This document shows positions 2,519-62,553 of a stretch of DNA of 64,000 bases, piece by piece; position 1 is the first letter of the stretch; each line of letters starts with the position of its first letter. The stretch is from Candidatus Accumulibacter sp. UBA704. Its GTDB lineage: Bacteria > Pseudomonadota > Gammaproteobacteria > Burkholderiales > Rhodocyclaceae. The stretch spans positions 40,227 through 104,226 of the forward strand of contig DBMG01000053.1 in NCBI GenBank assembly GCA_002304785.1. Direction: 5' to 3'. The position numbers were made by a program, and so were the translations under genes. Below the pieces are notes generated by a model. That model was not told the DNA's origin and ran no database searches. It saw only the letters and a program-made list of their open reading frames with translations.

Positions 2519-3580
2519 TCAGCACCCGCTGAGCGATTTTTTCTTGAAGTCATTCTGCAAGCGCTCGCGAATAGTCGTCGCCTCGTCGCTCTCCAGGTAG
2601 GCCCGCGTCGTCGGTGGAACGTAGTCGGCAAGGCCGGCAAAATCGCCCTTGCCGACCAGCTCGCGCACTTTGGAAGCGCTGATCACGCCGGTTTCCGCCT
2701 GCTTGCGTTCGATGATTTCGAGCTCGATGCCGTGCGCCGGCAGGATTCGCTGCATGGCCATGTTATAGCCTCCGGTCAGCGGGCAGTTCGGCTCGGTACC
2801 AACGAACCGCCGCGTGATACCGAAGAATGGGGCAATCTTCGAGGCAAACAGGGTCACGTCGAGTTCCATCTGGATGCGCGCCACGGGGTCGTCTTTCTTA
2901 AGGAAATAGGTCGGGAAGGTCGCTCCGCTGACGATATAGCGCGAGGTATCGAGTTGGATGACGTTGGCCAGATGGCGCACACCTTGCTCGACCAGGCGGT
3001 AACGAACCTCGAAAGGAAATACCGAACGGTCTTCCTTGACGACGAAAATGTACAGATTGTCCACCCGCTGTGCCGCGCTCTCGATCAGGTAGAGGTGCCC
3101 GTTGGTAAACGGGTTGCAGTTCACCACCACGGCGCCGTTCAGCCCCGGCCGAACCAGATCCTTGTTTGATTCCAGCCATTTGGAAAGCCCCTTGCCGTAT
3201 TCAAGCAAGGCCACTTTCTCCTGGGCAGCGAGCAAGGAGAAGTTCAGCGCCTGAAACGAGAAAACGAACTCCGGCTTGGTATAAACGAAAAGGGATTCGT
3301 GCCCGGCGCGCTGGCCGCTCATCACGAGTTCGGTAACCAGTTCCCCCAGCACAGCGCCACCTTGATGCTCCGGCGCCACGGCCAGCATTTTCAGGATGTT
3401 GCCGGCGCGCGAACCGGTCGCCACGAGCTGTTCGTTCTCGTAGATACCGTACATGACATCCACGCCCTCCTCGAACGCCAGGCCGCTGGCCTCGATCAAG
3501 GAACGCGCCATCTTGCGCTCGGAGTTAAGTGCCAATTCAACGATCACGATGTCGCTCCCTCTATCGTCCAAAGCGTTCAT
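2519..3580 (-). CDS. citC: [citrate (pro-3S)-lyase] ligase-like protein (GNAT N-domain plus cytidylyltransferase-like domain)
   Basis: 353-aa ORF. NCNPFTNGHLYLIE nucleotidyltransferase motif and overall CitC-family layout. Confidence 0.75.
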   Translation of the reverse strand: MNALDDRGSDIVIVELALNSERKMARSLIEASGLAFEEGVDVMYGIYENEQLVATGSRAGNILKMLAVAPEHQGGAVLGELVTELVMSGQRAGHESLFVYTKPEFVFSFQALNFSLLAAQEKVALLEYGKGLSKWLESNKDLVRPGLNGAVVVNCNPFTNGHLYLIESAAQRVDNLYIFVVKEDRSVFPFEVRYRLVEQGVRHLANVIQLDTSRYIVSGATFPTYFLKKDDPVARIQMELDVTLFASKIAPFFGITRRFVGTEPNCPLTGGYNMAMQRILPAHGIELEIIERKQAETGVISASKVRELVGKGDFAGLADYVPPTTRAYLESDEATTIRERLQNDFKKKSLSGC

Positions 3581-3819
3581 GTGATTCTACCAGCCGCAAC
3601 ACCAGGCCGAACCCAGACATGGAAACTCTCGTCGCATCCGCTGAACCGGCCCCCGCTATCTTGCTGCTTCCGATGCGCGAATCTTCTCGATTAAGACTGA
3701 GTTAAGAATCGGCTGCTTAAATGCGAGCACCCGGAGTGATCCTCAACCCACCTCGACCACACGAAAGACAGGCCGGGACAAAACAACAACGGACTTCGCC
3801 ACCGTTCCTGGAGCTTTCA

Positions 3820-5829
3820 ATGCCTTTCGCCCGCCACAGCCAGCTTCGCTATCTGTCCATCATTCTAATGGTATGGCTTGGTGTGTTCCTCCTGACACGC
3901 GGCGTACTGCTGGCATCGCATCTGGCGGAAGCGGAAGTCGGCATTTCCGGTCTCTTGCGTATTTTTGGCGTCGGTCTCATCTACGACCTGGGCTTCCTTC
4001 TGTATGCGACCTTGCCGCTGTCCCTCTATCTGCTACTGTGCCCAATGGGCCTTTGGCAACGGAAGTGGCACCAGAGGGCACTGCGCGTATTCCTCGGGTT
4101 GATGCTGTTCGTCATGCTGTTCACGGCCGCGGCGGAATGGTTCTTCTGGGACGAATTCGGGGTGCGCTTCAACTTCATCGCGGTGGATTATCTGGTGTAT
4201 TCGAAGGAGGTCATCAACAATATCCTCGAGTCGTACCCGATCTATCCGATACTCGCTGGGCTGGCCATCGCGGCCACAGGAATGGCCGCTGCGCTGAATA
4301 AGTCTCTCGATGCCGCTTTCACCGCTCCGCCATTGCCGCGAACTCTTGCATGGCCGACACTTGCCGGCGTGCTGTTGGCGGCGGGAGTCAGCGGCGCTTT
4401 GCTCGGGCAGAATTTTCCGCGCGGCCTGGGAGGCAACGCTTACCACAGCGAACTGGCGAGCAACGGTCCGTTCCAGTTTTTCGCCGCGTTTCGCAACAAC
4501 GAACTGGATTACCGGCAGTTCTATGCCACGCTGCCTGAAAACCGTGTCGCGGAACTGCTGCGCGGCGAGGTCGCAGAACCCAACGCCCGTTTCATCGGCA
4601 GCGACCCCGAGGATATCCGCCGGGTGATCAATAACCCCGGACAGGCACGGAAGATGAACGTCGTGCTGGTCACCATTGAAAGCCTCAGCGCCAAATATCT
4701 CGGCAGCTTCGGCGACACCCGCGGCCTGACTCCCAATCTCGACGAGCTGCGTAAACACAGCCTGTTCTTCACCAACTTCTACGCCACCGGCACGCGCACC
4801 GATCGCGGACTCGAGGCGATTACGCTCTCCGTTCCCCCGACCCCTGGCCGCTCGATCGTCAAGAGAATCGGGCGGGAAACCGGTTATGCCAGTCTCGGCC
4901 AACAGTTCAACGCGATGGGATACGACAGCGTGTTCATCTATGGAGGACGCGGCTACTTCGACAATATGAATGCATTCTTCTCCGGCAACGGATACCGCAT
5001 CGTCGACCAGAGCAGCGTTGCCGACGCGGATATGGCGTTCCAGAACGCTTGGGGCATGTCGGACGAAGACATCTACAAACAGACGCTGAAGGTGGCCGAC
5101 GCCGATCACGCGGCGGGCAAGCCTTTCTTCCTGCAGCTGATGACCACCTCCAACCACCGCCCCTATACCTATCCGGGAGGACGCATCGACATCCCCTCCG
5201 GCCAGGGACGCGAAGGCGCCGTGAAATATACCGACCACGCGATCGGCCAGTTCCTCGCCCAAGCGCGGGAGAAACCCTGGTTCGACACGACCGTTTTCAT
5301 CTTCGTCGCCGATCACACGGCAGGCAGCGCCGGCAAAGAGGATCTGCCGGTCGCCAACTACCATATCCCCTTGTTCGTCTATGCCCCGGCATTCATCCAG
5401 CCGCGCGAGGTGTCCATCGTTGCGAGCCAGATCGATGTGGCTCCTACCCTGCTGGGTCTGCTCAATTTCAATTACACATCGACTTTCTTCGGCCGCAACA
5501 TGCTGAGGGAAGACGCGCCCACCGGACGTGCCGTGATCGGCAACTATCAGCACCTGGGGCTGTTCGACGGCACCAGCCTGGCAATTCTCAGCCCGAGACG
5601 GGCAATGCGTCGACACGACGACGCACTGGGTTCAAGCCACGAAGTCCGCTCGAATAGCGGCGATCCGCTCCTGCAGCGCGATATCGCCTACTACCAGGGC
5701 GCGAGCCATCACTTCCGGAAAGGTCTGCTGGCCTGGCGCCCTGATTCCGGAGCCCAGACCCTGCTGACCCACGTCAATCCACCGCCAGCAGCCGTGGATC
5801 TTCCGGCCGCCGCGGCTTCCGGAACGTAG
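3820..5829 (+). CDS. LTA synthase / phosphoglycerol-transferase family protein (membrane-anchored sulfatase fold)
   Basis: N-terminal transmembrane helices followed by an alkaline-phosphatase-superfamily domain (VVLVTIESLSAKYLG, MTTSNHRPY, ADHTAG). ATG 3820 is preceded by GGAG. Confidence 0.8.
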   Translation: MPFARHSQLRYLSIILMVWLGVFLLTRGVLLASHLAEAEVGISGLLRIFGVGLIYDLGFLLYATLPLSLYLLLCPMGLWQRKWHQRALRVFLGLMLFVMLFTAAAEWFFWDEFGVRFNFIAVDYLVYSKEVINNILESYPIYPILAGLAIAATGMAAALNKSLDAAFTAPPLPRTLAWPTLAGVLLAAGVSGALLGQNFPRGLGGNAYHSELASNGPFQFFAAFRNNELDYRQFYATLPENRVAELLRGEVAEPNARFIGSDPEDIRRVINNPGQARKMNVVLVTIESLSAKYLGSFGDTRGLTPNLDELRKHSLFFTNFYATGTRTDRGLEAITLSVPPTPGRSIVKRIGRETGYASLGQQFNAMGYDSVFIYGGRGYFDNMNAFFSGNGYRIVDQSSVADADMAFQNAWGMSDEDIYKQTLKVADADHAAGKPFFLQLMTTSNHRPYTYPGGRIDIPSGQGREGAVKYTDHAIGQFLAQAREKPWFDTTVFIFVADHTAGSAGKEDLPVANYHIPLFVYAPAFIQPREVSIVASQIDVAPTLLGLLNFNYTSTFFGRNMLREDAPTGRAVIGNYQHLGLFDGTSLAILSPRRAMRRHDDALGSSHEVRSNSGDPLLQRDIAYYQGASHHFRKGLLAWRPDSGAQTLLTHVNPPPAAVDLPAAAASGT

Positions 5830-6355: not shown

Positions 6356-7306
6356 TCAGATCACGTAATCCTCGCCCGCAACGGCTTCGTTTCTGAGAAT
6401 TTCGGTGATTTTCTGTTCGGCCAGTCCGGGCACGAGCTTCTGGATCAGGTCGTAAGCATAGCTGCGCAGATAGACGCCGCGACGCACGGCCAGACGCGTG
6501 GTATTCGGAACAAAAAGGTGCGGGACATCCAGGAGAACCAGGTTGCTGTCGCGTTCCGGGTTGTAGGCCATCGAAGCGATGATGCCGATGCCCAGCCCGA
6601 TATCGACGTAGGTCTTGATCACATCGGCGTCGATGGCCGAAAGAACGATGTCGGGCAATAGTCCCTCTTCGGCAAAACGGCGATCGATGTTCGCCCGCCC
6701 GGTGAAACCTTCGTGGTAGGTAACGATCGGGGATTCCGCGATATCGGCCAACGTAATGTTCTCCAGCTCCGTCAGCGGGTGGCCACGCTGGACGATCACG
6801 GCGTGATGCCAAGTGTAATAGGCAAAGGTAGCAATTTCCGGAACGTTGGCCAGCCACTCCGTAGCGATGGCGATATCGGCCTCACCGGCGATCAGCATCT
6901 CGGCGATTTCCTTCGGGCTGCCCTGGTGCAGGACCAGATGGACCTTCGGGTACTCCGCCTTGAACCGTTTAATTACTTCCGGCAATGCGTAGCGTGCCTG
7001 GGTATGCGTGGTGGCGATTACCAGGTTTCCGGTTTTGCGGCTGGAGAAATGGTCGGCAATGCTGCGCACGTTCTGGGTATCGAGCAGGATGCGCTCGACG
7101 ACGGTCAGCACTTCCTTGCCCGGCTCGGTAAGGCCGAGCAGCCGCTTGCCACGGCGCACGAAGATCTCGACCCCGAGTTCATCTTCGAGATCCTTGATGT
7201 GTTTGGAAACACCAGGCTGAGAGGTGAACAGCGTATTGGCTACCGTCGTCAGGTTGAAGTCCTGGCGTACCGCCTCTCGAAGGATGCGCAGTTGCTGGAA
7301 ATTCAT
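6356..7306 (-). CDS. cysB: LysR-family transcriptional regulator, CysB/Cbl type
   Basis: N-terminus MNFQQLRILREAVRQDFNLTTVANTLFTSQPGVSKHIKDLEDELGVEIF parallels the CysB HTH region. Adjacent to a sulfate-binding protein gene. Confidence 0.85.
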   Translation of the reverse strand: MNFQQLRILREAVRQDFNLTTVANTLFTSQPGVSKHIKDLEDELGVEIFVRRGKRLLGLTEPGKEVLTVVERILLDTQNVRSIADHFSSRKTGNLVIATTHTQARYALPEVIKRFKAEYPKVHLVLHQGSPKEIAEMLIAGEADIAIATEWLANVPEIATFAYYTWHHAVIVQRGHPLTELENITLADIAESPIVTYHEGFTGRANIDRRFAEEGLLPDIVLSAIDADVIKTYVDIGLGIGIIASMAYNPERDSNLVLLDVPHLFVPNTTRLAVRRGVYLRSYAYDLIQKLVPGLAEQKITEILRNEAVAGEDYVI

Positions 7307-7333
7307 GTCCGCTCCTCGCCTCCCCGTACCCGG

Positions 7334-8344
7334 TTACCGCCCGGCTCCGTAAATCTGGTCGAACGTGCCGCCGTCGGCGAAATGCGTTTTCTGTGCCTTC
7401 TCCCAGCCGCCGAAGACGTCGTCAATGGTGATCAGGTTGACCTTGGCGAACTGTTTGGCGTACTTCGCGGCCACCTTCTGGTCTCGCGGACGATAGTAGT
7501 GTTTGGCGGCAAGTTCCTGCGCTTCGGGGGAATAGAGATACTCGAGATAGGCTTCAGCGACCTTGCGCGTGCCGCGCTTGTCGACGGTCTTGTCGACCAC
7601 CGACACCGGCGGTTCGGCGAGGATCGACAGTGACGGCGTAACGATGTCAAACTTCTCCGGCCCCAGTTCCTTGACCGCCAGGTAGGCTTCATTCTCCCAG
7701 GCCAACAGGACGTCGCCGATGCCGCGTTCGGTGAAGGTGGTGGTCGCGCCGCGCGCACCGGAATCCAGCACCTTGACGTTCTTGAAGATCTTGCCGACGA
7801 ACTCCTTGGCCTTCTCGTCGTTGCCACCCGGTTGTATCAGCGCGTAGGCCCAGGCTGTCAGGTAGTTCCAGCGGGCGCCACCGGAGGTCTTCGGGTTCGG
7901 TGTGACGATACCGATGCCGGGCTTGACGAGATCGTCCCAATCCTTGATCTGTTTGGGATTGCCCTTGCGTACCAGGAAGACGATGGTCGACGTATAGGGC
8001 GAGGCGTTCTGCGGCAGGCGTTTCTGCCAGTTTTCCGGAATCAGGTTCTTGGTGGCGAGCGCACCGACGTCATAGGCCAGAGCAAGGGTGACGACATCGG
8101 CATCCAGCCCATCGATGACGCTGCGCGCCTGCTTGCCCGAGCCGCCGTGTGACTGGTTGATGGTGACCTTCTCGTTGGCCTTGCCCTGCCAGTATTTCGC
8201 GAAGGCGGCGTTGTATTCCTGATAGAACTCTCGCGTCGGATCATAGGAGACGTTAAGCAGCGAGGTATCGGCGCGTGCGGAAGCCGTGGCAGCGGCAAAG
8301 GCGAGGCCCAAGGCCAGGCCAGTCAAAAGTTTGCGGAACGACAT
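7334..8344 (-). CDS. sbp: sulfate/thiosulfate ABC transporter substrate-binding protein
   Basis: Signal peptide [23 protein letters not shown] followed by [13 protein letters not shown], typical of Sbp/CysP. ATG 8344 has GGAGA upstream. Confidence 0.85.
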
Positions 8345-8498
8345 CGGGATTCTCCTTCGATAAATGACAGGCCCGAGTCTAGGCAATCACCTCCACAACC
8401 CAAACGACTTAATGTTTATTAGCTTATTCGCCGGTCTTGCATATTCTTAAAACCAAAGGTTATTAGAAATAGATGAATTGGCGTAATCGAGGAATATA

Positions 8499-8828
8499 TC
8501 AACGGGAATGACGGATTTCGTAGCCGGATCCGCGCAACAGTTCGATAGCTTGTTCTAGTTTGCGCTGTCTCTGGATCTGGCGGTTGCCGAGAGTCAACCG
8601 TGGCACTCCCGATAACGCGCAACCATGGCTCTCCAGCCAGGTATTGATGAGGTCGAGACTCTTCCGGCCAATACCCGGCGCACGCTCGATGACCCGGATA
8701 TCCAATGCGGCAATCTCCTGAGGGGAAATACTGGCCTTGTTCAACAGCAGGCGCAACGCGTTTCGCTGACGTGTCGGCAAAACGGTCGCTTCCGATTCAC
8801 CACCGGGCGGAAGTTTGCGGTCGGACAT
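8499..8828 (-). CDS. small stand-alone RNA polymerase alpha-CTD-like helix-hairpin-helix protein
   Basis: LPTRQRNALRLL...EIAAL...ERAPGIGRKSLDLINTWLESHGCALSG aligns by eye with RpoA CTD (LTVRSANCLK...[24 protein letters not shown]). GAAGGAG lies 7 nt upstream of the ATG. The gene sits in an AT-rich islet. Confidence 0.6.
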   Translation of the reverse strand: MSDRKLPPGGESEATVLPTRQRNALRLLLNKASISPQEIAALDIRVIERAPGIGRKSLDLINTWLESHGCALSGVPRLTLGNRQIQRQRKLEQAIELLRGSGYEIRHSR

Positions 8829-9137
8829 GACGGACGCTCCTTCGGCAACAGGCCGCGCAGGCCGGAAAATTCGATCCCATCAAAGAGCCAAACAGGATTC
8901 TGGGGCGCCAGCATAGACATAACGGCGGAGGCAACCAACGAATGAATCCTGATATCGAAATCTGTCGTGCGAATAAAGATCCTTATTCCCGCCGGGGTTG
9001 AAGGCTTTATTCAAGCGCCAAGTCGCGCAACCAGACATTTTGATATATCCAAATAATTATTAGTTCGTTCCAAAAAACACTTTACAAATATAAGGTTGAG
9101 GCCAAGACATCGCCCAATTCGAGAGCAACGAACAATC

Positions 9138-10346
9138 ATGGACATTACGCAGACCTATCCGAACCCTGCCGGACATCCGGGTTCGGGCATTCTTGCCCGC
9201 CTGCTGGCACCTTTCTGGAAGGAACAGGCGACGGCGACGATTGCCAACTCCTCCGGCAACTTTCGCAGAGAAGCGCATATCGAAGAGCGGCACGATGCCG
9301 TCGGCTCAACGGCCGAAGCCCCGGCCCTTTTTTCCCTGCACGGCATCGGCAAGACGTTCAACGGCGGGGTAAGGGCGCTGCACGGCATCGATCTGGACAT
9401 TCGCGAAGGCGAAATCTTCGGCATCATCGGTCGCAGCGGCGCGGGGAAAAGCACGCTGATACGCACGCTGAACCAACTGGAACGTCCGACCGAAGGCCGC
9501 GTTCATTTCGAAGGCCGCGATCTGCTGGCGCTCGACGCCGCCGGACTGCGCCAGGTGCGGCGGCGCATCGGGATGATCTTCCAGCATTTCAACCTGCTGT
9601 CCTCGCGCACTGTCGCCGGCAACATCGCCCTGCCCCTTGAACTGGCCGGAGCGCCGGGAGAAGACATCAAACGTCGCGTCGACGAACTGCTCGACCTCGT
9701 CGGCCTCACGGAACAGCGCGATCGCCACCCGAACCAGATCAGCGGCGGACAAAAGCAACGTGTAGGTATCGCCCGCGCGCTGGCCACCGAGCCGCGCGTT
9801 CTGCTGTGCGACGAAGCCACCTCCGCACTCGATCCAGAGACGACCCAGTCGATTCTCGGCCTGCTCGCCGATATCAACCAACGGCTCGGTCTGACCATCG
9901 TCCTGATCACGCACCAGATGCAGGTCATCAAGGCGGTCGCCCATCGGGTCGCCGTGTTGGAGAACGGCCATCTCGCCGAACTCGGCGCGGTCGCCGACAT
10001 CTTCACCGCGCCGAAGCAGCCAATCACGCGCACCCTGCTGCAGGAGGTGATCGGCAACGAAATTCCGCCGGGCGTTCGTGACAGGGCGGCGCGTTTGCTC
10101 GCCAGCGGAGAAGGCCGCATCTGGCGCCTCGGCTTCCGCGGGGAGAGCGTGGACCGGCCGGCGCTGACCGAAGCGGCGGAACGCTTCGGGCTGAAGATCA
10201 ATCTGTTGCACGGCTATATCGACGAGATCCAGGGCACTCCGTTCGGCTCCCTCGTCGTCGCCGCCAGCGGCACGGCCGAGGCGATCGAGGCAGCGGAAAC
10301 GTTCATCCGTAGCCAGGAAATCTCGCTCGAGGAGATCAGGCTATGA
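9138..10346 (+). CDS. metN: methionine ABC transporter ATP-binding protein
   Basis: Walker [10 protein letters not shown], signature LSGGQKQRV and a C-terminal NIL domain. Stop overlaps the metI start. The start is uncertain: ATG 9138 leaves a 63-codon N-terminal extension. Confidence 0.85.
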
Positions 10347-10996
10347 GCCCCGAACTGCTCCGTCTGTTTCAAACGTCGCTGCTCGAAACCCTCTGGATGG
10401 TCGGCGTCTCGGGCGCCATCGGGACGGTGGTCGGACTGCCGCTCGGCGTCCTGCTGGTCATCACCGATCACAACGGTCTGCTGCAGAACCGTCCGCTGAA
10501 TCGGGTGCTCGGTATCGTTGCCAACGCCGTGCGTTCAACGCCGTTCATCATCCTGCTGGTGGCCGTCATACCGCTGACCCGCCTGATTGTCGGAACCTCC
10601 ATCGGCACCTCGGCGGCGATCGTCCCGCTGGCCATCGCGGCGATTCCGTTCATTGCCCGCCTCGTCGAGACCGCCCTGCGCGAGGTCGACCGCGGTTTGA
10701 TCGAGGCCTTGCAGGCGATGGGCGCGACGCCATGGCAGATCATTCGCACGGTGCTGATTCCGGAAGCCCTGCCCGGCATCGTCGCCGGACTGACGATCAC
10801 GCTGGTCAGCCTGATCGGCCATTCCGCGATGGCCGGCGCCGTCGGCGGCGGCGGACTCGGCGACCTCGGCATCCGCTACGGTTACCAGCGCTTCCTGCCC
10901 GAAGTCATGACGCTGGTGGTGCTCGTGCTGATCGTCCTCGTCCAGATCGTCCAGTCCGCCGGTGACCGCCTGGCACGGCGCATCAGCCATCGTTAG
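10343..10996 (+). CDS. metI: methionine ABC transporter permease
   Basis: 217-aa polytopic permease immediately after metN with a 4-nt overlap. Confidence 0.9.
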
Positions 10997-11033: not shown

Positions 11034-11834
11034 ATGCACATTTCAAAACTGGTACGCGGCCTGCTCGCCGCTGTGGCTATCGTATCGTTTTCCGCCCACG
11101 CGGCACTCAGCGAAGACAAGCCGTTGCGCATCGGCGTAACCGCCGGGCCGCACGCGCAGATTTTCGAATTCGTCAAGAAAATCGCCGAGAAGGATGGCCT
11201 GAAACTCCAGATCGTCGAGTTTTCGGACTACGTGCAGCCGAACGCCGCGCTGGCGGCCGGCGACCTCGACGTGAACAGCTATCAGCACCAGCCCTACCTC
11301 GACAACGCCAACAAGGACCGCGGCTACAACCTCGTCTCCATCGGCCAGACGATCATCTTCCCGATCGGGCTCTATTCGAAGAAGTTCAAGTCGCTCGACC
11401 AAATCCCCAACGGCGCGCGGCTCGCCCTGCCCAACGACCCGACCAATGGCGGGCGGGTTCTGTTGCTGTTGCAATCGAAAGGATTGGTCAAACTCAAGCC
11501 GGAAGCGGGCCTCAAGGCAACCCCGCTGGATGTCGTGGATAACCCGAAGAAACTCAAGTTCATCGAACTCGACGCCGCCCAGCTGCCGCGCGCTCTCGAC
11601 GATGCGGATGTGGCCGCCGTCAATACCAACTACGCCATCCAGGCGGGCCTCTTGCCGTCCCGCGACGCCATCGCCATCGAAAGCCTGAAGTCGCCGTACG
11701 CCAACGTGATCGCCGTGCGGGCCGCCGACAAGGACAGCGCCGTGCTAAAGAAATTGCTCAAGGCCTACCAGAACGATCAGGTCAAGCAGTTCATCAAGAC
11801 CGAGTTCAGGGACTCCGTCTTCGCCACCTGGTAA
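11034..11834 (+). CDS. metQ: MetQ/NlpA-family methionine-binding lipoprotein
   Basis: Signal peptide MHISKLVRGLLAAVAIVSFSAHA. MetQ-like body. AGGAGA RBS before ATG 11034. Confidence 0.9.
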   Translation: MHISKLVRGLLAAVAIVSFSAHAALSEDKPLRIGVTAGPHAQIFEFVKKIAEKDGLKLQIVEFSDYVQPNAALAAGDLDVNSYQHQPYLDNANKDRGYNLVSIGQTIIFPIGLYSKKFKSLDQIPNGARLALPNDPTNGGRVLLLLQSKGLVKLKPEAGLKATPLDVVDNPKKLKFIELDAAQLPRALDDADVAAVNTNYAIQAGLLPSRDAIAIESLKSPYANVIAVRAADKDSAVLKKLLKAYQNDQVKQFIKTEFRDSVFATW

Positions 11835-11858
11835 GCAAATCGCCAAGAGCACCTCACG

Positions 11859-12944
11859 ATGAGTACTCCCGACTGGATCCGCGTGCAGCCCGGCGCCGCG
11901 AACTACTACGCATACGCCGGCGCACTGGATCAGATCGAGCAATTCCACCCATCCGGCGCCTTGAAGCGCGTGCTCTGGATCGGGGGCAAACGGGCGCAGG
12001 CGGCCGCCGCGCCCTACCTGCCTCCTCTTTTCCACGACTCCCGTTCCATTCGCGAGACGTTCTCCGGACATTGCTCTGAAAATGCCGTATCCCGTTACGT
12101 CCAACTCGGCCACGACGCGGACCTGATCATCGGCATCGGGGGCGGTTCGGTCCTCGATACGGCCAAGGCGGTTGCCCATCGCCTCGGCAAGCCATTCGTC
12201 GCCATTCCGACCATCGCCGCCACCTGTGCCGCCTGGACCCCGCTTTCGGTGTGGTACGACGATCACGGCAAGGCGCTGGGCTACGAGCTGTTCCCTCAGG
12301 CCAGCCGCCTGGTCCTGGTCGAACCGCGCATTCTTCTTGCCGCGCCACCCGACTACCTGCGCGCCGGCATCGGCGACACGCTGGCCAAGTGGTACGAAGC
12401 TCGCGTCCTGTGCGAAGCGGAGACATCGTTACCGCTGACGGCCCAGATCGGGCTCTCGGTCGCCCGGCAAATTCGCGACATCCTGATCGAGGACGGGCCG
12501 GCGGCGCTGGCCGCCGTGGCCAGTGGCAAATTGAGCGACAGTTTTCTGCGGGCGGTCGATGCCATCATTGCCGGTGGCGGTCTGGTCGGCGGACTCGGCG
12601 AACGCCATACCCGGCTTGCTGCCGCGCACTCGATCCACAACGGTTTGACCGTGCTGCCTGAAACCGCAGGATTTCTGCACGGAGCCAAGGTAGCCTACGG
12701 AATCCTCGTGCAACTCGCACTGGAAGAACGGCGCGACGAACTAGGCCATCTGGACGCGGCGCTCAAGGCACTGGGAATTCCTCGACGGCTGGCGGATCTG
12801 GATGTCGACATCGGACAAACCGAGCGCATCAATGCCTTCATCGCGCACACCTTGCGCAGCGGAGAATCCATCCATTTCCTGCCCGGGAAAATTGACAGTG
12901 CCCGCTTGCGGCAGGCGCTGACAACGGTTGAAACGCTGTCCTGA
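11859..12944 (+). CDS. iron-containing alcohol dehydrogenase family protein (glycerol-dehydrogenase-like)
   Basis: GGGSVLDTAKAVA motif and conserved His cluster (AAHSIHNG). Lies 24 nt after metQ. Confidence 0.8.
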   Translation: MSTPDWIRVQPGAANYYAYAGALDQIEQFHPSGALKRVLWIGGKRAQAAAAPYLPPLFHDSRSIRETFSGHCSENAVSRYVQLGHDADLIIGIGGGSVLDTAKAVAHRLGKPFVAIPTIAATCAAWTPLSVWYDDHGKALGYELFPQASRLVLVEPRILLAAPPDYLRAGIGDTLAKWYEARVLCEAETSLPLTAQIGLSVARQIRDILIEDGPAALAAVASGKLSDSFLRAVDAIIAGGGLVGGLGERHTRLAAAHSIHNGLTVLPETAGFLHGAKVAYGILVQLALEERRDELGHLDAALKALGIPRRLADLDVDIGQTERINAFIAHTLRSGESIHFLPGKIDSARLRQALTTVETLS

Positions 12945-60582: not shown

Positions 60583-61374
60583 TTATTTTACTGCGCTGCT
60601 TGCCGTGTTAGCCAGACGAATGTAATCGGAAAGAGGCAGTTCCTCGGCCCTTGCCGTGGGCGAAATATTGAGGTGTACGAACAAGGCATCGTCGACGATA
60701 CCCTTGAGGTTGTTGCGCAGCATCTTGCGCCGCTGGCCGAACGCCGCAGCCACCAGAGCGGCAAACCGCGCCTCGTCGCGTACCGTCAGATCCTCGGGAG
60801 CGCGCGGAATCAGTCGCACCACGGCGGAATCCACTTTTGGCGCCGGATCGAACGATTCCGGCGGTACGTCGAGCAACCAGTCCATCATGAAGCGGTATTG
60901 CAGCATCACGGAGAGCCGCCCGTAGTCGGCCGTTCCCGGCTCTGCCACCATGCGCTCGACGACTTCCTTCTGCAGCATGAAATGCATGTCGAAGACGCTG
61001 TCGGCGAACTGCGCCAGGTGGAACAGCAAAGGCGTGGAGATGTTGTAAGGCAAATTGCCGACCACATGCAGTTTCTGCCCGGGTTGCCCAACCAATCCGC
61101 CAAAATCGAAGGCCAGCGCGTCTCCTTCGTGGATCGTTAGTTTTTCGGCAGAATAACGTTGCCGCAACCGGGCCACGATATCGCGATCAATTTCGACCAC
61201 ATGCAGGTGGTCGAGTCGTTGCAGCAACGGTTCGGTGAGAGCCCCTAGGCCCGGTCCGATTTCGACGACCAGATCGTCACGCCGCGGCGCCACCGCACCG
61301 ACAATCTCACCAATCACCTGCGCATCGATCAGGAAATTCTGCCCAAAACGCTTGCGCGCAACATGCTTGCTCAT
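60583..61374 (-). CDS. rsmA: 16S rRNA (adenine1518-N6/adenine1519-N6)-dimethyltransferase
   Basis: [26 protein letters not shown] motifs. Confidence 0.95.
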
Positions 61375-61543
61375 GCCTTACACCTCGACTCAAGCGTTTC
61401 AGTGCAGGCTAACCTGCGCCAGCAGGTTACGCCGGAGCTAAAGCGTTTGCGAGCTACGTGTTTGCTCATTCCGAGAACCTGAATCCAAACCCTTCAGTGC
61501 AGGCTAATCTGCGCCAGCAAGTTGCCCCAGAGCTGAAGCTTTT
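61354..61543 (-). repeat. two tandem 95-bp repeat units at the pdxA-rsmA junction
   Basis: 61449-61543 against 61354-61448 gives 72/95 identical in a gapless alignment. 61345-61353 begins a third, partial copy inside rsmA. Confidence 0.85.
61371..61469 (-). CDS. mini-ORF b (32 codons, [32 protein letters not shown])
   Basis: Its ATG overlaps the stop of mini-ORF a, and its TGA overlaps the rsmA ATG. The first 10 codons encode the RsmA N-terminus with only synonymous differences. Confidence 0.45.
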
Positions 61544-61546
61544 CAT
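61466..61546 (-). CDS. mini-ORF a (26 codons, [26 protein letters not shown])
   Basis: Its ATG overlaps the pdxA TGA, and its TGA overlaps the ATG of mini-ORF b. It shares the core [15 protein letters not shown] with mini-ORF b. Confidence 0.4.
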   Translation of the reverse strand: MKSFSSGATCWRRLACTEGFGFRFSE

Positions 61547-62553
61547 TGGCGCACTCCGGCGCGGTTTGCCATCTCGATGGCCTGATCGACGGCGACGAAG
61601 AGGCTGCCCGGGTCGGCGCGACCGGTACCGGCCAGTTCAAGCGCAGTTCCATGGTCCACTGAGGTCCGGATGATCGGCAGGCCAAGCGTGACATTGATGC
61701 CGTTGCCGAAGGTGGCGTATTTGAGCGCGGTCAATCCCTGGTCATGGTACATGGCCAGCACGCAGTCGCCCTGCGCCAGCATCGGCGGCGTGAACATCGT
61801 GTCGGCGGGCAGCGGGCCGACGAGCAACATCCCTTCCGCGCGCAATTTCTCGAGCACGGGTGAAATCACCTCGATCTCCTCGTTTCCAAGGTACCCCCCC
61901 TCACCGGCATGAGGATTAAGTCCGGCAACAAGAATGCGCGGCCGGGCGATCCCATACTTTCGGTACATCTCTTCATGCAGGATGCGCAGCGTCTGTTCCA
62001 ACGATTCCCGGGTAATCGCGGCAGAAACCTCCTTCAACGGCAAGTGCGTGGTCGCCAGAGCCACCCGAAGCTCGCCGCCGGCAAGCATCATGACGACACG
62101 GTGCGTATGAGTCCTTTCGGCCAGATATTCAGTGTGACCCGTGAACGGTATGCCGCTATCGTTGATGACACCTTTATGCACTGGAGCCGTCACCATCGCC
62201 GCGAATTCGCCGGACTGGCACCCCACCAGCGCTCGGTCAAGCAAACGCAGCACGTAGGCGGCATTGGCCGGATCGAGCCGGCCGGGAACCGACAAGGTAG
62301 CGAGCGGAAGATGCAGAATATCCAGGGTTCCGGCTTGCGGGGCGCTATCCGGATCCCAGTCGCGCAGAGCAACGCGCGCATGCAGCATCGCTGCCCGCTC
62401 CGCTATCATCTTCCGGTCACCGAGAACGACGATGCGCGCAATCGTCCCGATAGAGTCGCCGCGCCCCGTTTGCTCGGCCAGCCGCAGGCAGAGTTCCGGC
62501 CCGATTCCTGCGGGCTCCCCGGAAGTCACCGCAATCACCGGCATGGTGCCCAC
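61543..62553 (-). CDS. pdxA: 4-hydroxythreonine-4-phosphate dehydrogenase
   Basis: TSGEPAGIGPEL, GHTEYL motifs. GTG 62553; an alternative ATG is at 62544. Confidence 0.9.
   Translation of the reverse strand: MGTMPVIAVTSGEPAGIGPELCLRLAEQTGRGDSIGTIARIVVLGDRKMIAERAAMLHARVALRDWDPDSAPQAGTLDILHLPLATLSVPGRLDPANAAYVLRLLDRALVGCQSGEFAAMVTAPVHKGVINDSGIPFTGHTEYLAERTHTHRVVMMLAGGELRVALATTHLPLKEVSAAITRESLEQTLRILHEEMYRKYGIARPRILVAGLNPHAGEGGYLGNEEIEVISPVLEKLRAEGMLLVGPLPADTMFTPPMLAQGDCVLAMYHDQGLTALKYATFGNGINVTLGLPIIRTSVDHGTALELAGTGRADPGSLFVAVDQAIEMANRAGVRQ

Follow-up and report, generated by a model that had tools for sequence, protein, structure and literature searches.

Some integrative elements restore the gene that they enter: genomic islands insert into the 3′ ends of tRNA genes, and elements of the SXT/R391 type into the 5′ end of prfC. 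IS200/IS605 elements, PATEs and REP/REPIN sequences carry a subterminal hairpin and, near it, a sequence complementary to the target or cleavage site; IS200/IS605-type insertion takes place immediately 3′ of a short motif and the complementary stretch is 4 nt long. Mycobacterial interspersed repetitive units (MIRUs) are described as short intercistronic repeats in which the stop codon of an open reading frame (ORF) overlaps the downstream start codon with a spacing of −4, an arrangement thought to permit insertion while disturbing expression as little as possible (Supply et al. 1997, Mol Microbiol 26:991, as reviewed in PMC12548453). Here we describe a locus in a 64,000-nt stretch of Candidatus Accumulibacter sp. 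UBA704 (contig DBMG01000053.1; below, the window), where two ~95-nt units with a hairpin lie in tandem between pdxA and rsmA of a surA-pdxA-rsmA operon on the minus strand. They contain two mini-ORFs, a and b, which an inspection of the letters alone (the sequence-only reading) had taken for translated peptides of 26–32 aa under coding selection, as the repeat copies differ almost purely at synonymous third positions. We consider it probable, at roughly 0.7, that the mini-ORFs are by-products of a hairpin insertion unit that brings a replacement gene terminus with it, and that the synonymous signature comes from real rsmA lineages.

MIRUs, judged from their description, are the closest known analogue of these units. 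As far as the cited review describes them, both are tens of nt long, tandem-prone, intercistronic in operons, apparently mobile and provided with an ORF coupled at −4. The units described here lie between co-oriented operon genes, and start and stop codons overlap as ATGA at all three junctions of the window (pdxA/mini-ORF a, mini-ORF a/mini-ORF b and mini-ORF b/rsmA), as TTGA at a ruvC gene, and as ATGA or by 8 nt in a further genome (L092). MIRUs form tandem units of ~46–101 bp at many loci per genome; we found two tandem 95-nt units in the window, which was scanned over its 64 kb, and four units in another contig (L108). The MIRU host belongs to the Actinobacteria, whereas the units studied here occur in Betaproteobacteria of the Rhodocyclaceae type. 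Unlike MIRUs as described there, our units are inserted 10–18 codons inside a gene or before its stop, are accompanied by two copies of the gene terminus, and carry a short inverted copy of the target (X′) and a conserved hairpin. To our knowledge, neither terminus duplication nor inverted target copy nor conserved hairpin is part of the MIRU description. A search of the literature turned up no element with long gene-end duplications beyond MIRUs.

With the gene-restoring integrative elements the units share the replacement terminus, the displaced native terminus and the difference between the two copies, one of which is foreign. However, those elements measure kilobases and encode their own integrase, whereas the unit has ~95 nt, a hundredth of that size, and no integrase, and its copies are matched to different genes. 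With IS200/IS605-type elements it shares a conserved hairpin, an adjacent stretch complementary to the target and insertion linked to a motif, here a T-run (…GTTTT^, where ^ marks the insertion point); by this analogy X′ might guide the unit through pairing with the end of its target. The units differ from them by the 9–16-nt complementarity, the long flanking duplications and the lack of a GTAG motif. Both orientations occur in L108, which indicates no strand bias, and no TnpA or RAYT protein was identified, although transposases were not searched for. Since both orientations are found in one gene cluster and no enzyme turned up, a simple single-strand transposon model is disfavoured.

Occupied and empty pdxA-rsmA junctions

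Read 5′ to 3′, a unit consists of displaced rsmA codons 1–10, a 40-nt core, X′, a linker with a Shine-Dalgarno (SD) sequence and functional rsmA codons 1–10. A repeat search detected the two units as a tandem direct repeat of 95 nt x 2 (61345–61439 and 61440–61534, 76% identity); Tandem Repeats Finder reported no array for the two 95-nt units, the copies being too diverged. By its RsmA homologues the host is a Propionivibrio-like bacterium of the Rhodocyclaceae. We compared this junction with that of close relatives, using contigs with the same gene order and an RsmA that is 88–92% identical. In L096–L104 the site is empty and the TGA of pdxA overlaps the ATG of rsmA directly (CCAATGAGC); the site is also empty in the more distant relatives L105–L107. 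A single unit orthologous to unit a, with the same linker (…CTCTCGGAATG), is present in L095 (GCA_041739735.1), where the two copies of the rsmA start differ at 1/30 positions. Unit b alone was found in L082, L088 and L090, and a variant unit in L001 and L089. Measured by the body of rsmA, L095, L096 and L098 are closest to the window (86–87% identity) and L088 is farthest (81%). Unit b is common to the window and L088 and absent from closer lineages, so that its carriers bracket lineages that lack it. As expected of mobile elements in general, the units show presence/absence polymorphism at orthologous sites and have copies in six different genes.

The comparison between the window and L088 separates the parts of the unit. 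The flanking genes differ at 19% of all sites and 43% of third positions, and the displaced copy behaves like a gene, with 5 of 30 positions changed, 4 of them third positions. The block of core, X′, linker and functional copy, on the other hand, differs at 3 of 96 positions (p = 1e-5), and divergence resumes within ≤9 nt on either side, giving sharp borders. The same pattern is seen between L001 and L089 (1/96, p = 7e-5). Native rsmA starts at the empty sites carry the same synonymous polymorphisms as were noted between the copies of the window (AAA/AAG, CAC/CAT, ATA/ATG/GTC, CGC/CGT). The displaced copy of each genome resembles the local allele: the middle copy of the window, by our own count, differs from the native start of L096 at 2/30 positions. 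In contrast, all b units have one functional-copy allele (dupB in Table 1), which is distinct from the displaced copies. The allele pattern and the near-identical block together lead us to conclude that the synonymous pattern is standing divergence between real rsmA genes: the two copies of the window stem from different lineages, in which rsmA diverged under ordinary purifying selection before these alleles became neighbours.

The codon comparison itself was confirmed. As the sequence-only reading had stated, codons 1–10 of mini-ORF b and rsmA differ at six positions, all of them third-position and synonymous (AAA/AAG, CAC/CAT, GTA/GTT, GCT/GCG, AAA/AAG, CGC/CGT), and the 15-codon stretch common to both mini-ORFs contains five synonymous third-position differences plus GTA/GCA (V/A). 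The probability that 6/6 differences fall in one codon phase by chance is 0.0014, and that at least 5/6 do so is 0.018. The TTT/TTC difference falls in the duplicated rsmA codon 10, so that 4/5 differences at third positions are left for the hairpin core proper. Periodicity is beyond chance in the duplicated rsmA start and marginal in the core. The 23-nt linker is highly diverged, as had been noted, but we count 12 differing positions and not 14. On the plus strand, open frames at 61363–61482 and 61458–61673 have wobble positions that coincide with those of the minus-strand mini-ORFs, and for this reason the coding strand cannot be identified from periodicity alone.

Paired terminus copies in seven units of six genes differ by codon position as [11, 5, 42]; among the changed codons 43 are synonymous and 6 non-synonymous. 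The displaced copy at mraY retains a perfect VRFWIITMLLVLLGLATLKLR-stop although the local ORF through the unit reads another frame; selection on a mini-ORF cannot explain this case, because the copy is out of frame with that ORF. Displaced copies also decay: the oldest one of the window has lost 18 nt and changed one residue (R-to-S), and that of L090 carries K3E. The coding-selection signature reported earlier is thus real in the 10-codon stretch and stems from a history as functional rsmA, not from selection on peptides of 26–32 aa.

Table 1. Features of the pdxA-rsmA junction in the window (SD, Shine-Dalgarno sequence; X′, inverted target copy)
Feature	Position	Strand	Remarks
pdxA	61543–62553	−	TGA overlaps ATG of mini-ORF a; overlaps rsmA ATG in empty-site relatives
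Mini-ORF a, 26 aa	61466–61546	−	Putative relay ORF of the older, decayed unit a
Unit a	61470–61546	−	Plan of unit b, but displaced rsmA start shortened to ATGAAAAGCTTC
Remnant of oldest displaced rsmA start (ATGAAAAGCTTC)	61535–61546	−	18-nt in-frame deletion and R-to-S relative to L082, L095
Hairpin core of unit a	61495–61534	−	Weakened stem AACTTGC / GCAGATT; covariance model 65 bits
X′ of unit a (AAGGGTTTG, inverted target copy) and 16-nt linker	61470–61494	−	
Middle copy of rsmA codons 1–10 = start of mini-ORF b	61440–61469	−	Displaced copy for unit b; local lineage allele AAA CAC GTA GCT CGC AAA CGC
Mini-ORF b, 32 aa	61371–61469	−	Putative relay ORF through unit b; TGA overlaps rsmA ATG
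Hairpin core of unit b, 40 nt	61400–61439	−	AGCTCCGGCG-TAACCTGC-TGGC-GCAGGTTA-GCCTGCACTG; covariance model 81 bits
X′ of unit b (AAACGCTTG)	61391–61399	−	Reverse complement of rsmA codons 8–10 (CAAGCGTTT, 61345–61354)
Linker of unit b, 16 nt	61375–61390	−	SD-like GAGGTG; similar to pdxA 3′ end of L082
Functional copy of rsmA codons 1–10 (dupB)	61345–61374	−	AAG CAT GTT GCG CGC AAG CGT
Predicted long RNA helix	61339–61407	−	Encloses SD and AUG of rsmA
rsmA (ksgA), 16S rRNA dimethyltransferase	60583–61374	−	

Two side observations concern the same junction. In L001 (~3800–3905) and L089 a spacer of ~100 nt separates pdxA from the displaced rsmA start; within it a GCGC-TTTTT-GCGC hairpin precedes ATTAG…CTAAAC, and the context of SD plus ATG is duplicated in the linker. 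This spacer resembles an older, decayed unit, and tandem re-insertion at the site may therefore be common. At the empty site of L002 (~2960–3011; RsmA 77% identity) a 10-codon ORF, ATGAGCTTAAACCAAGCCTCCCTTGATGACTAA, overlaps the rsmA start (ATGACTAAGCAC…). It opens with ATGAGC, as does rsmA in the clade of the window, and may be a remnant of an earlier rearrangement.

The same core in other genes

Metagenome contigs were searched with a degenerate pattern of the core, which yielded 11 matches: seven true ones and four due to chance (L081, L084, L087, L091). Four of the true matches are pdxA-rsmA junctions with one unit each (L082, L088, L090, L089), and a genome scan added L001, whose pdxA-rsmA unit is like that of L089. 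In L086 the unit is located at the start of ruvC; a copy of ruvC codons 1–15 continues into the core (…GTGF^SSDISCWRRLVCTE…) and this frame closes with a TGA that overlaps the TTG at which ruvC actually begins. L083 and L085 carry it at the 3′ end of argF with the core antisense to the gene, the complete argF C-terminus on one side of the core and a second copy (NRLHVQKALMEYLLLGRIETK-stop) on the other, adjoining argG. Furthermore, we searched 5.8 billion protein clusters with the concatenated core peptides and obtained 14 candidates with one true match, P0001, an 80-aa ‘hypothetical protein’ in the dcw cluster of L092 (GCA_041488395.1) and L108, which is itself an ORF running through a unit (below, relay ORF). 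Units are found in this cluster at the 3′ end of mraY, at the 3′ end of ftsW (two in tandem) and at the 5′ end of murG, and every small intergenic ORF there overlaps the neighbouring genes by 4–8 nt. The four units of L108 lie within 3.1 kb (7291–10347), none being present elsewhere in its 20 kb, and both core orientations are represented within this one gene cluster.

The architecture is constant across these genes. The core is always flanked by two copies of the terminus of the host gene (ruvC, murG, argF, ftsW, mraY or rsmA). In 9/9 cases X′ corresponds over 9–16 nt to the end of the terminus copy that adjoins the gene body, and in 9/9 cases the gene body lies 3′ of the unit. At the 3′-end insertions in argF and ftsW the translated core frame is on the opposite strand, in the same frame as the plus-strand ORFs of the window. 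Occupied junctions between co-oriented operon genes are pdxA-rsmA, mraY-murD, ftsW-murG and argF-argG. A covariance model built from the core (R1) recovered both units of the window and no further core copies in the 64 kb of the window, in ~65 loci or in the rest of L108. Neither blastn of the core against plasmids and phages nor a pattern scan of viral contigs gave anything meaningful.

The murG unit is informative with regard to the mode of entry. Its two terminus copies differ at 14/17 third positions, with one amino-acid change (M/L) and a one-codon indel (Ser2). By our own reading, the longest identical run is ~8 nt and, by our own count, G+C content at third positions is ~53% in the functional copy vs 72% in the displaced one. 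This divergence leaves too little identity for homologous recombination and therefore favours a targeted, possibly base-pair-guided entry. The sharp borders of unit b, its unit-specific allele in several diverged hosts and the murG case suggest that the block is a discrete mobile unit. One tentative extension is that the unit represents a miniature homing cassette, i.e. a non-autonomous element of ~95 nt composed of a hairpin, the 9–16-nt guide-like X′ and a replacement terminus. Such a cassette would integrate right after a matching sequence at the end of an essential gene, displace the native terminus, and spread between quite distant genomes into the same gene while the gene stays intact. 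The divergence of the murG copies, the sharp borders of unit b in several lineages and the 9/9 polarity point in this direction.

Some further features of the units and of their surroundings were observed. Most insertion points follow a T-run after a C/G-rich stretch (rsmA CGTTTT^GG, ruvC GGTTTT^GG, argF GGTTTT^(C)GG, ftsW GATTTT^C, murG ATTTTT^); the mraY site shows no obvious fit. The T-run may be a target motif. Unit b at rsmA (linker AGTCGAGGTGTGCGGC in L082) and the murG unit of the unrelated genome L092 (linker AGTGCGGAGGTGTGCC, 3348–3363) have similar linkers; the SD-bearing linker may belong to the element itself, or else the rsmA and murG units have converged on GGAGGTG. In L108 the gene in the murC position (11422–12942, 506 aa) lacks a precomputed Pfam hit, whereas all its neighbours have one, and may be interrupted or extended.

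Hairpin, leader or peptide

Unit b together with the rsmA start is predicted to fold into the core hairpin followed by a long helix (−48.1 kcal/mol, z = −2.67), in which the 3′ end of core b and X′ would pair with rsmA codons 7–12 and thereby enclose the SD and AUG. For unit a the predicted fold is on a par with that of shuffled sequence (z = +0.11). The short ORF, the ATGA overlap and the predicted sequestration of SD and AUG in a helix are reminiscent of coupling upstream ORFs and leader peptides. However, the ORF studied here is the product of an insertion, its first codons copy the N-terminus of the gene itself, and no promoter-like, terminator-like or attenuator-like site was found in 61100–61900.

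The ksgA gene of E. coli was reportedly found by van Gemen in 1989 to be translationally autoregulated. The unit could be an old, vertically inherited cis-regulatory leader of rsmA, made up of a structured RNA and an upstream ORF that controls rsmA translation (as an operator for KsgA autoregulation, for example); it would have been maintained by strong selection at the nucleotide level and lost several times by recombination between the direct copies. The high conservation of the unit between unconserved flanks, the stable predicted fold and the joint change of X′ and the functional copy from one group of units to the other would suit such a leader, as would two details: the variable sites of unit b, few as they are, cluster in the 3 nt between SD and ATG, and some empty-site alleles resemble hybrids of dupA and dupB (L098: AAA CAT ATA ... 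AAG CGT). Yet an operator specific for rsmA leaves unexplained why an identical core and architecture occur at the 5′ and 3′ ends of unrelated genes. The displaced copy would in addition require peptide-level selection for which there is no rationale, and the out-of-frame copy at mraY is incompatible with it. A regulatory RNA would not normally conserve every nucleotide of its loop, and an Rfam scan of 60900–62000 gave no match, the best scores being 11–22 bits against thresholds of 50–120. Overall, we regard the leader as rather unlikely.

The second alternative, close to the sequence-only reading, is that functional micropeptides with a C-x5-C pair and arginines are made from mini-ORFs a and b; they would bind metal or RNA and be kept by purifying selection. 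Within the window the 6/6 and 5/6 synonymous differences and the open frames chained by ATGA overlaps are in line with this, and the six rsmA-linked mini-ORFs all have exactly 32 codons. However, once orthologous units of diverged hosts are compared with unit b, no third position of the core is changed (0/15, with ~43% or ~6 expected; p = 2e-4); the orthologous core is invariant at all three codon positions. Core differences between the two groups of rsmA units are distributed as [3,2,1] over the codon positions and thus fall mostly on positions 1 and 2. The codon-position spectrum that had been proposed as a check on the peptides now covers 14 copies, and the minimum numbers of core changes by codon phase are [14,17,14], without any periodicity. 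A third-position excess is limited to the private changes of the decaying unit a (4/5, p ~0.045) and vanishes once the linker of that unit is counted in (5/11). The supposedly conserved C-x5-C core loses Cys and Trp in the murG copy, which reads SSDITRKKRALVSTE, the opposite strand of the core is read at the 3′ insertions, and the single protein retrieved from the 5.8 billion clusters is itself a relay ORF. The displaced copy in mini-ORF a, moreover, lacks six codons in frame.

The core hairpin shows compensatory changes. Its stem reads CCTGC/GCAGG in some copies, CTTGC/GCAAG in others, and has a different version at murG (…TAACGCGC-AAAAAAC-GCGCATTA…). In the hairpin alignment 92.9% of cells are paired, compared with 25–58% in slid controls; four pairs are changed on both sides, and 0/500 shuffles reach the covariation score. 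The core is constrained as a nucleic acid and not as a peptide. This leaves the micropeptides largely refuted and, in our estimation, very improbable.

Translation of the mini-ORFs, claimed on the same occasion, is still plausible in view of the open frames and chained ATGA overlaps, but peptide-level constraint on the core fails. In every unit of the 5′ type the displaced start begins a frame that stays open up to a stop at or overlapping the real start codon; four of these units measure 95, 95, 95 and 125 nt, all of them 2 mod 3, and the murG unit has 124 nt and an 8-nt overlap. Every unit of the 3′ type has an ORF from at or just after the real stop to at or in the start of the next gene. 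In line with the role put forward for MIRU ORFs (PMC12548453), the mini-ORFs are most likely relay ORFs that preserve translational coupling; what is constrained would then be the reading frame and its register and not the peptide.

Slippage or unequal crossing-over might simply have duplicated the pdxA-rsmA junction in tandem; this, with no mobile element and with the synonymous pattern due to chance and rsmA constraint, would account for the two units with their 95-nt period, and unequal recombination between direct copies can build arrays. This is hardly credible given that the core recurs in at least five other genes of several genomes, that units a and b differ in linker and closest relative (L095 for a; L082/L088 for b), and that Tandem Repeats Finder reported no array. 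Coding on the plus strand by the antisense ORFs at 61363–61482 and 61458–61673 is very improbable: both frames are open with conservative changes only (T/A before PELK) and this core frame is translated in the relay ORF at 3′-end insertions, but the ORFs run antisense to the operon with no promoter-like site, and the arguments against peptide-level constraint on the core apply equally. Five further candidates were dropped: a CRISPR-like repeat (repeats non-identical, spacing wrong), an integron attC site (too short, R′′/R′ boxes imperfect), the template/variable repeat (TR/VR) pair of a diversity-generating retroelement (differences not adenine-specific), a hammerhead or other ribozyme (no Rfam match) and a DNA uptake sequence (duplications left unexplained).

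Proposed course of insertion and its meaning

We propose that the pdxA-rsmA junction was hit twice by a non-coding insertion unit of ~95 nt. Unit a would have come first, being common to the window and its closest relative and now decaying, and unit b later, adjoining rsmA. The block from the core to the functional copy would be inserted as one discrete unit; its sequence is nearly identical in hosts that have otherwise diverged considerably. On insertion the native terminus would be displaced, and the imported second copy would join the gene body and become its functional start. Each copy would then be, or have been until the insertion, the start of a functional rsmA in a different lineage, which would account for the synonymous differences. 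The mini-ORFs would arise as read-through products that begin at the displaced native start and end at the TGA overlapping the next ATG. A ribosome arriving from pdxA could translate mini-ORF a and then b, unwind the helix over the SD and AUG of rsmA and re-initiate on rsmA; owing to this proposed relay the cost of the insertion to the operon would be small.

Several points weigh against the insertion unit. No transposase or recombinase partner turned up, although no search aimed at a transposase was made. The near-identity of unit b could also reflect an old insertion under strong selection at the nucleotide level with repeated precise losses, and the clustering of its variable sites between SD and ATG has to be counted here, too. 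L088 and L090 are 99% identical over pdxA/rsmA (12/1270 positions differ, 0.9%), whereas their unit and displaced copy differ at 5/126 (p = 0.0075). Recent transfer does not readily account for this excess; its cause could be local hypermutability, an exchange of alleles between units or the assembly of mixed strains. The 4/5 private core changes of unit a at third positions are a weak residual hint of coding constraint. Finally, the family comprises ~10 distinct units obtained with one degenerate pattern and one peptide search, an ascertainment that favours conserved cores. The units of L088 and L090 are located at ~790–900 and 2460–2560.

A synonymous-only, codon-periodic signature is usually taken as proof of a real small gene, and this locus is a counter-example. 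When gene termini are displaced or imported, a fossil of their coding signature persists in them, and dN/dS, PhyloCSF or RNAcode would be misled by it if paralogous copies were compared. The units appear to constitute an undescribed family of tiny insertions in Betaproteobacteria that enter the ends of essential genes without inactivating them. In the affected genes, rsmA, ruvC, murG, ftsW, mraY and argF, the termini are rebuilt and relay ORFs should preserve coupling. If a guide does direct the unit, nature would here offer a minimal system for scar-tolerant, site-specific insertion.

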